From Octopus vulgaris (Eukaryota), in NCBI GenBank assembly GCA_951406725.2, contig OX597817.1, positions 121,458,001 to 121,522,000 on the forward strand: DNA of 64,000 nucleotides. The letters run 5' to 3'. The first letter of the stretch is position 1. The number at the start of each line of letters is the position of its first letter. Below are positions 578 through 62,041 of this stretch, one piece after another. The position numbers and the translations under genes were made by a program. A model generated the notes under the pieces. It made no database searches. It saw nothing but the letters and a program-made list of their open reading frames with translations, and was not told the origin of the DNA.

Positions 578-2832
578 GAGACTATTACTAGTTCTACCTG
601 CATGCCAAGTATGTAAATTAAGAAACAAATAAGCTACTCTGAAGTTAGATCTTTTTGAGAAAAGTATTCTGAACAGCTGTTGACAGTATTTGTTTCTATT
701 ATCACCAAATGAAAAAAACAAAAAAAAGGCAATTACTTATTAGTTTAATGTGATGAAGTTAAAGCTAATTTGAATCTACGTATTATACTTCTAGAACAAG
801 ACACAGGTGGAAAAGAAGGTTATCGAATGTAACAATATTAGAGGGTGTAATTTTGAAATCCGGGAAGTTGTATGATGTGGGAATTGCCTAAAAATTAAAG
901 TTAAAAAAATTAAAGCAATCTCAAGCACTTGAAATAGTTAAGTACGATGACGATTATATTATGAATAAATATATTGAACTTTCGAAACTTAAAAACATGA
1001 TAGATACATACGGGATTCGAAACTGCCTAAATGTCAGTGCCTTAGATTCTGCAAATGCGGAAATATGTGGTGTGCAACAATGAATATATAATTCGGGAAA
1101 ACACTTTATCTATACTAAAATCTATTCTTGCATTCACTGAAATTCAGACTTGAACTTGATATAAAATCATAAACAATTATAATTGTTGTTATTTCTACTG
1201 CTTTCAAAACATCTAAAGCACTCAATGAATGCATATTTAGATATATGGTCAAACCTTGTCAATGTTTCTGAGGACTACAAACATTTAATAAATTGCTTAA
1301 TGAGATATTTGGCAAGGTGAGACAATAAGAGTTTACGATAAGTCAAATATATTGAATAGGTTTCGGTGGAGAAAATGCAACAACATTATTCAAAAGAAGA
1401 AAATGACATTATAGTAAGACGATACATCATCCCTAAAGTAAATATTAAATAGCTTGAGCAATGGACATTTAAGAAGAATCGATACATTCAAATGTTCTAA
1501 TGCTAGATGCATTTCAAATAAGGAATGTTAGCATTACTTGTCAACACTAATTGGACACAACTCAATAATTGTTTTATGGAGAATACCAATTTATTCTTCG
1601 TTTAAGAGCCTGAAATAGTAGTAGCAGTTGTGATTTCTTTTATGCGTTTCAACCATGAGGCTGGGAACATGTTGGAGCACTACTATTGTTTAACTTCACA
1701 TACGCGCTGAGACTGAAAAGCGAAAGGTGTTCCTTCAATTGTGGTTATCTAAGCTTTGTTTTGATTTCACACTATGTGTTCCTAGGACCATCATCTAAAT
1801 GAGTATTTCTATGTTTGAAAAGAGAGTTGGGTACCATCTGAAGGAGATGAAGCTATTATATCCACCATATTTAGCGATCACATGCAGTAGCACTCGTTAG
1901 CTCGTTTTTTGATGCACTTAACATACTATCGCAGCAGGTTAGCTTAATGGGAAGTAATTTGATAATTTCATTAACAGATTACAAATGTGGGTCAACACGA
2001 CAGAAAAGACAACAAAAAATACAAAACACTAATTAACACCAATTAATTAAGAATTAGACTGAACTAAGTCGATCAGACTTCCTATTTTCAAGATTCACTA
2101 TTAATTAGCTTAATTGCTAGTAAAACGATGTTAGTATATTCTTTCTAAATTGTATTGTTCTGTTGCCAATTTGTTATTACTACAAGTCAACTTGATATAT
2201 TCTTCACTAAATATACTGTTTAGTTTGTAGAACTGACAATTCCACACAAGATGGAAACGACTAGAAATATTCTTAGATATTCTTTTTAAATATTCCCATC
2301 TTACTTCTTCGTTGTTTTGGCGTCATTCCAATCAGGTAACAACATACATTTTCACTGTACTTCTATTTTCTTCACACTCCCACGTAATTTTTTTCATCAT
2401 CATCTCTCTCTCTTTCTCTTTCTCTCTCTCGCTCAACTTTCTGTTCCTCACACACGACCACACGCACCTCTTTCCTCTAACACTCATACACATACATAAC
2501 CTGTATTTACCCATCTGTTACATATAACATATACTTAATCATACTGCTACAGAACAGAGTGAAGCACAGTTTGACAAATGAATCGACAACCTAGATAAAT
2601 GTGATCACCAAATTGGACAACTAATTTGAGAAACATGTCTTTTGGGACAAAGCGTTTGTATTTTAATTAAGGTTTTCTAGAATATGTGCTGAGTAAATAT
2701 AAGTCGGATTGCAGAGGGAAAATGACATATGAGATTTTACTATTAAATTTAGAGTAAAATTTAATATTTATTTTCCACAAACTGATCTTGTATATTTTCC
2801 AATTTGACGAATCAATATTAATAGTGTTATAA

Positions 2833-32483: not shown

Positions 32484-33773
32484 CGAGGGACGTTCAATAA
32501 GTAATGCCTCTGACCCACTTGCAGTTGTTTGATCTAGCTGAAATTTTGCATGTGCAATTATTTATATCTCTATAGAGTAAGTGGCAAATTACAGCTCTGA
32601 ATTAATTGTGGTTTCTGATTTACAGGTGTTTGAACCGAGTCAAGTATGAAATGGAGCCTGTTGAGTGTCGAGTAGTGATCCGGTTTTTGTATTTGAAAGG
32701 ACGCACACCACGGGAGACTTTTGATGAAATGAAAGTAACTTATGGTGATGATGCCCCATCATATGACCTTGTAAAACGCTGGCATCGTGAATTCAAACAT
32801 GGTCGGAACTCTGTGGAAACAGCTCCCAGATCTGGTCGCCCCCTTCTGCCATTGATGAGGCATCTGTCCGTCAAGTTGAGGCTGCCATTTTGGAAGATCG
32901 ACGCATAATTATTCGCCAAATAGCCCATGAGGTCAAGATTAGTACCGGGTCTGTGGAAACTATCATTCATGACCATTTGCATATGCAAAAGGTGTCTGCC
33001 AGATGGATTCCCAGGTTGCTCACGCCTTTCCAGAAGCAAGAACGCGTCGAGTGCTCGATGGTGAATTTGGAGATGTGCCAAGAAGATGAGTCAAAATTTT
33101 TCAAAAGACTGATTACACATGATGAAACCTGGGTCCATCACGATGATCCAGAGACCAAAGCCCAGTCAATGCAGTGGAAGCACCGTGACTCACCCCCTCC
33201 AAAGAAGGCAAGGGCGCAGCCCTCCGCTGGCAAGGTCATGCTCACAGTCTTCTGGGACCAGGACGGAGTAGTGATGACAGATTTCCTGGCAAAGGGTACC
33301 ACAATTGCAGGAGCCTATTATGCTTCCTTTTGAGGAAATTAAGAGAAGTTATCAAAATCAAGAGGCGGGGCAAGATCAGCAAAGGCATCCTCCTCCTGCA
33401 GGATAATGCTCCGGTCCACAACTCGCTTGTCGCCAGATCAGAAGCACAGGCGTATGGCTATGAACTCCTCCCCATCCCTCCTACTTTCCTGACCTTGCAC
33501 CCTCTGATTTTCCCCTCTTCCCAATCATGAAGTTGTTTTTGAAAGGAAAGCGTTTCCCAGATGATGCAGCCTTGATTTCTGAAGTCACGTTGAGGTTGGA
33601 GGACCAAGCTGGGTTCTTCTACAAAAACGGTCTCCAGAGCCGCATCAAACGATGGGAGAAATGCGTAACTCTGGGTGGTTCCTATGTAGAAAAAGACTAA
33701 TAACTGTGCCAAGTTTCGTTGCTCTACTGCTATGGGAAATGGGTTAGGGACATTACTTATTGAACGCCCCTCG
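32484..33773 (+). mobile_element. Full-length mariner (irritans-like, DD34D) with TIRs and TA TSD
   Basis: TA at 32482 and 33774. TIRs of about 37 bp: cgagggacgttcaataagtaatgcc versus reverse-complement cgaggggcgttcaataagtaatgtc. Length 1290 bp. Confidence 0.96.
32651..33700 (+). pseudogene. Mariner transposase pseudogene (three frameshifts)
   Basis: MEPVECRVVIRFLYLKG..PRSGRP / KVSARWIPRLL..THDETWVH..GKVMLTVFWD / LLQDNAPVH / PDLAPSDF..RWEKCV..GSYVEKD*. Confidence 0.93.
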
Positions 33774-34261
33774 TAAGTATCGATGTTCTTATTTTCATCA
33801 ACTCAGTATCTCGTAGTACCACATTTTTTTTATTGGTCCCGTAATGATGAAATGCATAAGTGAACTCAGTGGAATGTAATTTTAGGAATAGGCACTACGA
33901 GGCATTCTGTTCGTAGCTCCAACGACTTAAAATGATTTCGTCACCTTACCAGAATTTATATACACAACCATTATTTCAAATAAACAGTGGGAAACATGTA
34001 AGCTTAATCGTGCGGGCGACTATTCGCAGCAACACTGAGTGTTCACCCCCAGTTTTCCGGCAGCGAGACATTTTGGACGGTAATTGTTGGTTAGTCATTA
34101 CCAACTGGAAATTTACAGATTTACTTCATTTTTGATGAGAAGATTGGCAAAGGAGTGTGCTAGTCAATGTAGAACAAGTATCACAGATGGCTTCATTAAA
34201 AAGAAACAAACAAAAAAGCAGAATATAAGGGGTTTTTCATTTTTCTAACAGACTAATACCT

Positions 34262-34494
34262 ATTTCTTTACTACCCACAAGGGGCTAAACACAGAGGGAA
34301 CAAACAAGGACAGACACGCGGATTAAGTCGATTACATCGACCCCAGTGCGTAACTGGTACTTATTTAATTGACCCCGAAAGGATGAAAGGCAAAGTCGAC
34401 CTCGGCGGAATTTGAACTCAGAACGAAACGGCAGACGAGATACCGCCAAGCATTTCGCCCAGCATGCTAACCATTCTGCCAGCTCACCGCCTTT
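34262..34494 (-). mobile_element. tRNA-derived SINE family A, young full-length copy with perfect 16-bp TSD
   Basis: TSD taacagactaatacct at 34246-34261 and 34495-34510. A and B boxes present. Central gcctttcatcctttcggggtcaattaaataagtacc resembles the Deu/Nin SINE domain. Confidence 0.95.
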
Positions 34495-34849
34495 TAACAG
34501 ACTAATACCTCATTCACAAATGAATATCGACAAAAGTGATCCTCAACGTACACACATACGCACAAACGCAAACACGCACAAATACACAAAATAACACACA
34601 CATATATGCACATATATATGTGCATGTGTATCTATGTATATATAAATGTATGTACGCATGTAAGTATCTTAGTATGCGTGTTACTGTCGACTAAATTCTA
34701 ATTAAAGTTGATTGTCAGCTTGAAGACATCGTAGAAGACACCAAAAATGTAACTTCTGCGGTATCTGTTTTGAACATGTTTCTCGTACAAAACCTTTAAT
34801 CACATACATCAGCGCGACATAATTTTAATATCTGAAACGACTACGTCCT

Positions 34850-60132: not shown

Positions 60133-61145
60133 TATGTATGTATATGTTTTCTGTGTTTGTGTGTATGTGTGCGTGTGTGTGTGTGTATGCACACATACAT
60201 GTAAGTTCTCTGGCTATACTGTATATCATGAGATCGATTTCCAACAAAGAAATGTCATACATTCTATACTAAACACATATATTTACAGTAAAATATGGTT
60301 TGTAATTTGGCATAGAATTACAATATGAATGCTTTGGGTATTCATATAACAATGTATTTTAAATGTAAAATAATATGCAAAATCGGCACTATTAATTGAT
60401 TTACATACCATTGTATTTTGGAACAATATATATTGCTCTCTTAAATTTACAAATTAGTTGAAAATATTGAGCTGAATGGCAAACAAATAGATTAATGTAC
60501 AAACCAATTTGTGGCTCTTAGTTACGTTGTTGTGCGTTCTTAGTTCATATCCTGTGGGCTTAGTTTTCTGTTTCACTGATCCATGATCAGAAAATAACAT
60601 CGATTTATTCTACTGAGCTGTCAGGCTGAGTAAAAAGTGAGCAACATGTTTCAATAATGCGGGAATTTTATTCGTCAAAGTAAGTACCCTTAAAATCAAC
60701 TCATTTTTGCCAACGAGTAACAAGTTTGTTTATTCCTGTAACATATAATTCTGGAGTTCTGGGGTTGATGAACTCTTTCGACGCACTTTCAGCATAGGTT
60801 TGATTTTTTGAACTCCTACGCTCGCAGGAAACCATCAAGGTGCTTGAATGATTGGTGGTTGGTAGAAGAAAGGGCTGGGAAATAAGCTGAGTGGGAAAGA
60901 ACTTCATGGCCAAGTTTCCTCAACTTCTGGAGTGCCATTAGTGAAACGTGTGGTCGAACATTGTCACATTGACTGATTAGTCCTCTTTTGTTGAGCAGTA
61001 TGGGACGGAGGAGTAGTAGTTTTTCGTTCATTTTGGCAATTTCATGACAATATGTTACTGCAGTACTGTTTTTGCCGGGTCTTAAGAAGTTATAGTGGAT
61101 GATCCCAGCAGTTCATCACCAAACAGTCACCATAACCTTCTTTCT

Positions 61146-61378
61146 TATTTCTTTATTGCCCACAAGGGGCTAAACATAGAGGGAACAAACAAGGACAGAC
61201 GATGGGATTAAGTTGATTACATCGACCCCAGTGCGTAACTGGTACTTATTTAATCGACTCCGAAAGGATGAAAGGCAAAGTCGACCTCGGCGGAATTTGA
61301 ACTCAGAACGTAGCCGCAGACGAAATACTGCTAAGCATTTCGTCCGGGGTGCTAACGTTTCTGCCAGCTCGCCGCCTT
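61146..61378 (-). mobile_element. tRNA-derived SINE family A, full length (3' part of the chimeric retrocopy)
   Basis: Closely similar to 34262-34494, including the 3' end cttgtgggcaataaagaaata. Confidence 0.95.
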
Positions 61379-61528
61379 ACTCGGACGGGGCCCCGGAACG
61401 ATGGGATCCCGCGGCCGCAATGTGCGTTTGAGGTGTCGATGTTCACTGAGTACTGTAATTCGCATCAGTTCACGCGGATAGCCGCGCTCTTCATCGACGG
61501 ACGAGCCGAGTGATCCCCCGACCAGTCG
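61379..61528 (-). pseudogene. 5.8S rRNA retrocopy, near full length (5' part of the chimeric retrocopy)
   Basis: Minus strand reads cgactggtcgggGGATCACTCGGCTCGtccGTCGATGAAGAgCGC...GAATTaCAG..GAACATCGAcacctcaAACGCACATTGCGGC...ccggggcc. These are the conserved 5.8S motifs in the correct order over 150 nt, with no flanking ITS, 18S or 28S sequence. Confidence 0.93.
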
Positions 61529-62041
61529 CCATAAACTTCTTTCTGAAGCGCTCAGATTTAGGGAAGGTTTTCGGTGCTTCATTTTGGTACAGCCACTGCG
61601 AAGAACATTTTTTTATTATTGTACAGAATCCACTTTTCATCACAAGTTATAATACGGTCGAGAAATGGATTGGTCTGGTTGCGAAGAAGAAGCGACGAGC
61701 AAATTTCATATCTGCGCATTTTCTAATGTTCATTCAAATCATGCGGTACCCATTTTTTTATTTTCCGATCGCATGCAAGTAGTTACAGGCAATTTTCTGG
61801 CTAACTTGAAGTTCATTTGCTAGTTTTCGAGTGATTTTACGTAGATCTTTCTCAATGTGGGTCTTTAAATGACCGTTATCGATGACAGATGGCAGTCTAC
61901 TATGCTCACGATGTTCAAGGCTCAGGTCGCCACTGCGAAATCGTTTAAATCAATTTCGAGCTGAACACTCACTGGTCATTTCCTTAACAAACGTTTTGTT
62001 GATATTGCGAGCAGTTTCAGATGCTTTACATCCTTTTCGAA

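Follow-up and report, generated by a model that had tools for sequence, protein, structure and literature searches.

A 5.8S rRNA-SINE fusion in Octopus vulgaris and its many counterparts in the genome, probably formed by template jumping of a LINE reverse transcriptase

A chimeric 5.8S rRNA-SINE retrocopy in a decayed mariner element

The window, i.e. the whole 64-kb stretch of Octopus vulgaris DNA that we analysed, is part of contig C4 of a 2.8-Gb assembly. The only Rfam match at gathering score in these 64 kb was to the 5.8S rRNA model RF00002, at 61529-61370 on the minus strand (83.4 bits, E 3.4e-19, cut-off 42). The covariance model thus confirmed the identity that a sequence-only reading of the window had assigned to this segment. 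The reference for 5.8S was the genome's own rDNA array (contig C20, period of about 18.3 kb), numbered from the first A of the region; position 1 of the Rfam model corresponds to reference position 2 and the end of the model to position 160. The locus and its internal control comprise the following features.

61530..61949, minus strand: upstream part of a decayed mariner-type transposase, the target of the insertion (Transposase_1 profile 5-32 in 61530-61646)
61523..61544, minus strand: 5' copy of a 22-bp target-site duplication, its last 3 nt common to rRNA positions 6-8
61382..61525, minus strand: 5.8S rRNA retrocopy (rDNA reference 6-149, 95% identical, no ITS, C128 allele)
61379..61381, minus strand: 3-nt linker between rRNA and SINE (AGT)
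61146..61378, minus strand: complete 233-nt family A SINE, intact from its first base
61124..61145, minus strand: 3' copy of the 22-bp target-site duplication, from direct repeat comparison
60819..61123, minus strand: downstream part of the decayed mariner-type transposase (Transposase_1 profile 40-75)
34246..34510, minus strand: solo family A SINE with its duplication, internal control (SINE 34261-34493)

Comparison with the genome's rDNA showed that the 5.8S copy carries neither ITS1 nor ITS2, as had been claimed, so that by the spacer criterion it is not a DNA-level rDNA fragment. The sequence-only reading had placed its 5' end at about the mature end. This is correct as to the neighbourhood but not as to the first base: the copy starts some 5 nt into the Rfam model and lacks about 4-5 nt relative to it, and the three bases previously counted as the first of the rRNA belong to the target duplication. 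The 3 nt at the end of this duplication, which equal rRNA positions 6-8 as well, form a microhomology. At the other end, the copy stops 11 nt before the end of the model (the earlier estimate was about 10 nt) and 9 nt before the commonest end of the sister copies described below (158). The rRNA was also thought to join the SINE without a spacer, but AGT (61381-61379) lies between them; these bases may be untemplated or may represent rRNA 150-151 after a 1-nt insertion, and this linker says nothing about a tail. The SINE at 61378-61146 is complete, in agreement with the first description.

A single target-site duplication encloses both parts, as proposed, though its length is 22 bp and not 16 bp. 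The repeats (61544-61523 and 61145-61124) are identical at 20 of 22 positions and can be extended without gaps to 27 nt at 85%. Once the insert and one repeat are taken out, the mariner reading RKKVMVTVW is restored, as predicted, and Pfam Transposase_1 matched collinearly on either side of the insert (profile 5-32, E 1.5e-4; profile 40-75, E 1.2e-4), both matches being below the curated cut-off. The earlier proposal of a single target-primed insertion of an RNA-derived 5.8S copy together with a SINE is supported. The segment 61496-61580 is matched, with one difference, by a 93-nt contig from an independent public run; this contig spans the 5' junction only, not the rRNA-SINE junction. No empty site turned up in the contigs, which are of a kind that gives this result no weight. 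The 5' junction is therefore not an assembly error, and the misassembly that the sequence-only reading had considered is ruled out there. Taken alone, the chimeric locus is dead and shows nothing that points to a function. The window contains another mariner-type transposase fragment, separate from this one, at 32791-33330 (Transposase_1, E 6e-19).

The solo SINE (34261-34493) is 90% identical to the chimeric copy, and its duplication, at 34246-34261 and 34495-34510, is identical at 16 of 16 positions, exactly as first noted. In the head of the family A SINE, a search for a tRNA signal gave 0 genes with ARAGORN and 0 Rfam matches at E<=5; A- and B-box-like motifs are visible there by eye only, and the searches thus did not confirm the name tRNA-SINE. 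Family A may resemble the octopus SINEs of Ohshima and Okada 1994. It amounted to 40 matches in 244 kb; extrapolation from the 4 solo copies among these gives a rough figure of about 50,000 family A copies in the genome. Tandem arrays of family A were found in L022, L026, L032, L033, L049 and L120, where later units start at consensus position 51, which suggests that the SINE itself contains a preferred target, or that re-priming took place.

5.8S-SINE fusions across the genome

Searches of the genome by DNA sequence (one), Rfam (one) and pattern (four), with all loci fetched, yielded at least 110 distinct 5.8S loci. There were 71 loci without ITS on both sides, of which L094 was dropped as a tandem duplicate. 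Among the 70 that were left, 51 had a SINE head on the same strand within 60 nt, and none had an antisense head only; the chance expectation of an adjoining SINE head is about 0.003 per locus. The heads belonged to family A (41 loci), B (3), C (3), C2 (2) and D (2). The SINE library was cut from the same loci, so that one C2 and the E and G rows include self-matches. The remaining ITS-free loci comprised 10 with a retroelement tail or inner part and 9 without a library match. None of the 26 ITS-bearing 5.8S loci for which the fetched sequence includes the end had a SINE head.

5.8S and SINE have been joined independently at least 54 times in this genome. The sequence-only reading had favoured a one-off chimera, an idea that we rejected because there are dozens of fusions of this kind. 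Most of the family A heads (37/41) start at position 1-2. For annotation, it matters that most dispersed '5.8S genes' in the assembly are retrocopies.

Several features of the rDNA were observed along the way. The rRNA genes are GC-rich and much expanded (L111-L112, C20), with an 18S of about 2.6 kb and a 28S of about 4.9 kb. Partial rDNA copies are also dispersed in large numbers over contigs other than C20, and L186, L206 and L208 contain 18S or 28S 5' fragments as short tandem repeats at dispersed sites.

Ends of the captured RNAs, linkers and other donors

The 3' ends of the 5.8S parts form two clusters, one at 146-159 with its mode at 158 (7 loci) and the other at 57-67 (9 loci). They are followed by linkers of 0 to more than 50 nt that match neither rDNA nor SINE. 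When the donor ended at or beyond 144, the first five bases of the linker were T-rich in 18 cases and A-rich in 4; when it ended before 144, they were T-rich in 4 and A-rich in 17 (Fisher p=5e-5 for the split, the cut-off of 144 having been picked after looking at the data). The split persisted at cut-offs of 110 and 150, and within family A after removal of 4 mis-parsed loci (p<=0.002). The flanks of solo SINEs, used as a control, displayed no such split (10 T, 7 A). Since the make-up of the linker depends on the end of the donor, it is hard to ascribe to the enzyme or to the target, and it fits RNA tails. We conclude that near-full-length donors were probably U-tailed and internal fragments A-tailed, the base composition pointing to intermediates of rRNA surveillance or decay. 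The exceptions to this rule are 4 long copies with A-rich and 4 short copies with T-rich linkers. U6 and 5S chimeras also have a few extra bases at their junctions, so the enzyme may have added part of each linker. Independent short-read contigs contain the linkers of L079 and L108 as well, together with two further junctions. Regarding precedents for such tails, 5.8S receives 1-6 U in C. elegans (PMC7472701), and human 18S and 28S fragments get heteropolymeric A-rich tails in an account that, in the text available, makes no mention of 5.8S (PMC1474067).

At their 5' side, the 5.8S parts start at 5-10 in 48/70 loci and at 1-4 in only 4. Starts at 1-4 were found in 15/17 copies of 5S, a set chosen for high score and therefore biased to full length. 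As to the inward starts of 5.8S, the mature 5' end may be further in than in the model, or the donors may have been trimmed. Starts at 5-10 also occur in the two tripartite units described below, where the upstream neighbour is another RNA.

Other RNAs are captured as well. For U6, 30 of 48 loci were fetched and 6 set aside as likely genes; a SINE head was present in 7 of the other 24, and a tail or inner part in 15. Most high-scoring U6 copies (L131-L160) are chimeric, joined to a SINE head, a short hairpin tail or the tail of an RTE-like LINE, and a cluster of five U6 gene copies is located on C1 near 139.42 Mb. Dispersed 5S gave 725 pattern matches genome-wide, and in all 17 copies examined the 5S was followed, as judged by eye, by a SINE head (5) or a tail (12). 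Several dispersed 5S copies (among L223, L230 and L251-L265) keep the pre-5S 3' trailer of the gene, and L228/L229 is a head-to-tail 5S-5S pair. For the large rRNAs, for which 5' ends only were considered, a junction with a retroelement was found in 2/46 loci for 18S (fetched from 70 matches) and in 1/14 for 28S (from 29 matches). The pathway therefore takes abundant small RNAs in general, probably nuclear ones. The capture of U6 and 5S also means that the SINE particle need not associate with ribosomes, an association that the sequence-only reading had inferred; the trailer-bearing 5S copies and the rarity of 18S and 28S 5' ends bear on the same point.

Two units contain three RNAs. L083 (C5 near 35,959,300; 1064-1533) consists of a full 5S, 5.8S 12-97, an A-rich linker and a full SINE within one 15/16 duplication. 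L044 (C7 near 9,559,300; 906-1418, minus strand) consists of U6, 5.8S 8-148 and a full SINE within one 14/16 duplication, and was inserted into a family D SINE.

As to the partner that supplies the enzyme, no LINE with a family A tail was found among the fetched loci: the RTE-like tail in L164 differs, and the L199 stretch falls short of the 3' end of its LINE. One type of tail in other chimeras is the 3' UTR of a LINE that encodes a reverse transcriptase and whose motifs suggest that it is RTE-like.

Formation of the fusions and relation to known chimeras

We consider it likely that the fusion in the window was made by a LINE reverse transcriptase that jumped end-to-end from SINE RNA onto the 3' end of a 5.8S RNA, itself probably U- or A-tailed. 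One target site was cut and, as the enclosing repeat shows, duplicated around both parts. Reverse transcription would be primed at the 3' tail of the SINE and run to its first base. There, the enzyme would take the 3' end of an abundant small RNA, in this case 5.8S, instead of the upstream target DNA, with a few bases sometimes added. The donors would be of two kinds, 5.8S of nearly full length with a U-rich tail and internal fragments with an A-rich one, a pattern that is apparent in the linkers and that tailing would account for. A second jump, to U6 or 5S, can follow, as the two tripartite units show, and at the window locus the end of the cDNA joined the target through the 3-nt microhomology. 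Target-primed copying followed by a jump to a free RNA 3' end would explain the intact heads, the strict orientation, the tails, the extra bases and the double events. A non-LTR reverse transcriptase, that of R2, copies several templates end to end in vitro and adds 1-5 untemplated bases (PMC8594491).

On a broader reading, about which our confidence is evenly divided, the genome would be a fossil tail-sequencing library of rRNA quality control, in which serial LINE jumps froze dozens of 5.8S decay intermediates, uridylated near full length and adenylated if cut internally (hot spot 57-67). If this is true, the fusions provide in vivo evidence for end-to-end jumping over RtcB ligation in SINE chimeras. 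They would also document, for a mollusc, two routes of rRNA surveillance in the germ line and an rDNA allele that is now extinct.

We considered the possibility that RtcB or another ligase joins 5.8S, or a fragment of it, to SINE RNA before retrotransposition via the SINE tail, a choice that the sequence-only reading had left open. Ligation predicts the same single duplication and has been shown for human U6/L1 (PMC6789731); U6 is a frequent donor in the octopus genome too, and the 5.8S starts at 5-10 in 48/70 loci could be cleaved ends that accept ligation in the tripartite cases. Yet, RtcB depends on a cyclic phosphate and a 5'-OH, and its ligation drops sharply when the donor carries a 3'-OH or the acceptor a 5'-triphosphate (PMC6789731). 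The acceptors in octopus are full-length SINE heads (37/41 starting at 1-2), which are expected to bear a 5'-triphosphate and thus to impair RtcB. Tailed RNAs end in a 3'-OH, which impairs it as well. In addition, the tripartite units would need two ligations, and the extra bases at the junctions vary. The evidence now leans to jumping, and because we infer the end chemistry of donors and acceptors, we keep prior ligation as an unlikely explanation that still deserves some weight. A host polymerase could also have patched the 5' gap left after synthesis of the SINE cDNA, using 5.8S-templated DNA or free cDNA. The microhomology and the extra bases at junctions would suit such RNA-templated repair, but the strict same-strand orientation (antisense in 0/70), the use of tailed donor 3' ends and the near-complete copying to the donor 5' end do not, and we regard it as highly improbable.

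Two separate insertions, i.e. of a 5.8S pseudogene or rDNA fragment and later of a SINE at its tail, or in the reverse order, might be expected where SINEs are as dense as family A is here and A/T-rich tails are plausible targets. We looked for duplications in the 31 family A loci that have a SINE 3' end. A duplication (score >=9) surrounded the whole unit in 19/31 loci and the SINE alone in 0/31 (0.5% in shuffled pairs), which led us to reject nested insertion. A wider search of all 54 head- or tail-joined loci gave 20/54 at score >=10 versus 3.7%. The 12/31 loci with no convincing whole-unit duplication, which are old, tandem or low-complexity sites, leave some room for two insertions. Mean divergence was 6% in the rRNA parts and 7% in the SINE parts; equal ages predict that the two co-vary, and the correlation was weak and non-significant (rho 0.24, p 0.14, n=39), an outcome that speaks against equal ages or at best does not favour them. 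With no antisense cases, no SINE head in the 26 ITS-bearing copies and an empty site that restores the mariner frame in the window, two insertions are very unlikely. An rDNA fragment as such was also rejected, there being no spacer and the starts clustering at 5-10 in 48/70 loci. A self-propagating SINE family with a 5.8S-derived head, finally, could account for the seven copies that end at 158 and continue into T-rich linkers, similar in two of them (L025 and L026), and for C128, common to 23/32 copies while T is found in all 17 present rDNA-like loci. Against it, the junctions are distinct in 54/54 loci and the copies ending at 158 have different partners. No private variants are shared: apart from C128, the variants common to copies represent CpG decay, and only 6 pairs among the 54 copies share two non-CpG variants, no pair sharing more. 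As C128 occurs with different partners, it is best read as an older rDNA allele, since replaced, that retrocopies would have preserved. Furthermore, 5.8S is a pol I product without an internal promoter. Type 2 pol III promoters are internal and that of the SINE would start downstream of the rRNA part, so the fusion cannot copy this part. The sequence-only reading had doubted such a family; the differing junctions and the lack of shared private variants led us to reject it, and we give it a very low probability.

There is debate over whether small RNA-retroelement fusions arise by template jumping or by prior ligation, and most tests have concerned human U6/L1. The octopus fusions number more than 50 independent events, and their full-length acceptors, tailed donors and double jumps make them a natural test set that favours jumping and that names the exact RNA ends to look for. 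They also show how candidate SINE heads are tried out. Donors that lack a promoter, like 5.8S, remain isolated events, while those that carry an internal one, like 5S, could give rise to families.

A chimera with 5.8S as donor was not found in the open-access main texts searched. The excerpts of PMC5322556 describe a screen for tailless retrocopies that included 5.8S, and mention, among pol I rRNAs, only a few cases of 18S and 28S. U6-SINE and U6-LINE chimeras are known in platypus (Mon-1, L2) and Anolis (AnolisSINE2, L1, L2, RTE; Doucet et al. 2015, PMC4476161), and fusions of L1 with 5S or 28S in primates (bioRxiv 10.1101/2025.02.02.635956). U6-SINE chimeras being already known, what is new within this class of chimeric retrocopies is 5.8S as donor and the pattern of tails.

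The chimeras described in PMC4476161 resemble the octopus fusions in having the small RNA 5' and the retroelement 3' in the same orientation within one target duplication. Their donors are often slightly 5'-truncated, as here, and they formed with stringent LINEs and their SINEs. In octopus, by contrast, the donor is 5.8S, a pol I processing product, in at least 54 events; the acceptor SINE is nearly always complete, and the donor ends fall into two classes with different tails. The U6/L1 chimeras made by RtcB (Moldovan et al. 2019, PMC6789731) have the same final architecture, but their acceptor is a 5'-truncated L1 with a 5'-OH and their donor bears a cyclic phosphate, whereas in octopus the SINE is full-length and the donor seems tailed. 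In the 28S/, 5S/ and tRNA/LINE-1 chimeras of bioRxiv 10.1101/2025.02.02.635956, rRNA pieces are co-inserted and the 28S is mostly in sense orientation, as in octopus; these comprise 18 human 28S loci with L1 as partner, and '5.8S' occurs 0 times in the text consulted. The tripartite WEIRD-MgSINE-MGL of Magnaporthe and B2-U6-L1 of mouse (Gogvadze et al. 2007, PMC2104539) likewise combine three RNAs within one duplication and have been interpreted as two template jumps; the octopus units are 5S-5.8S-SINE and U6-5.8S-SINE, each jump occurring at a template end. SINE28 (Longo et al. 2015, PMC4994717) has an rRNA-derived 5' part like the octopus copies, but is an amplified family with one structure, whereas the octopus fusions are unrelated single events. 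The same distinction applies to the 5S-headed SINE3/Deu-SINEs (as cited in PMC4758252), which also have an rRNA-derived 5' part and form amplified families.
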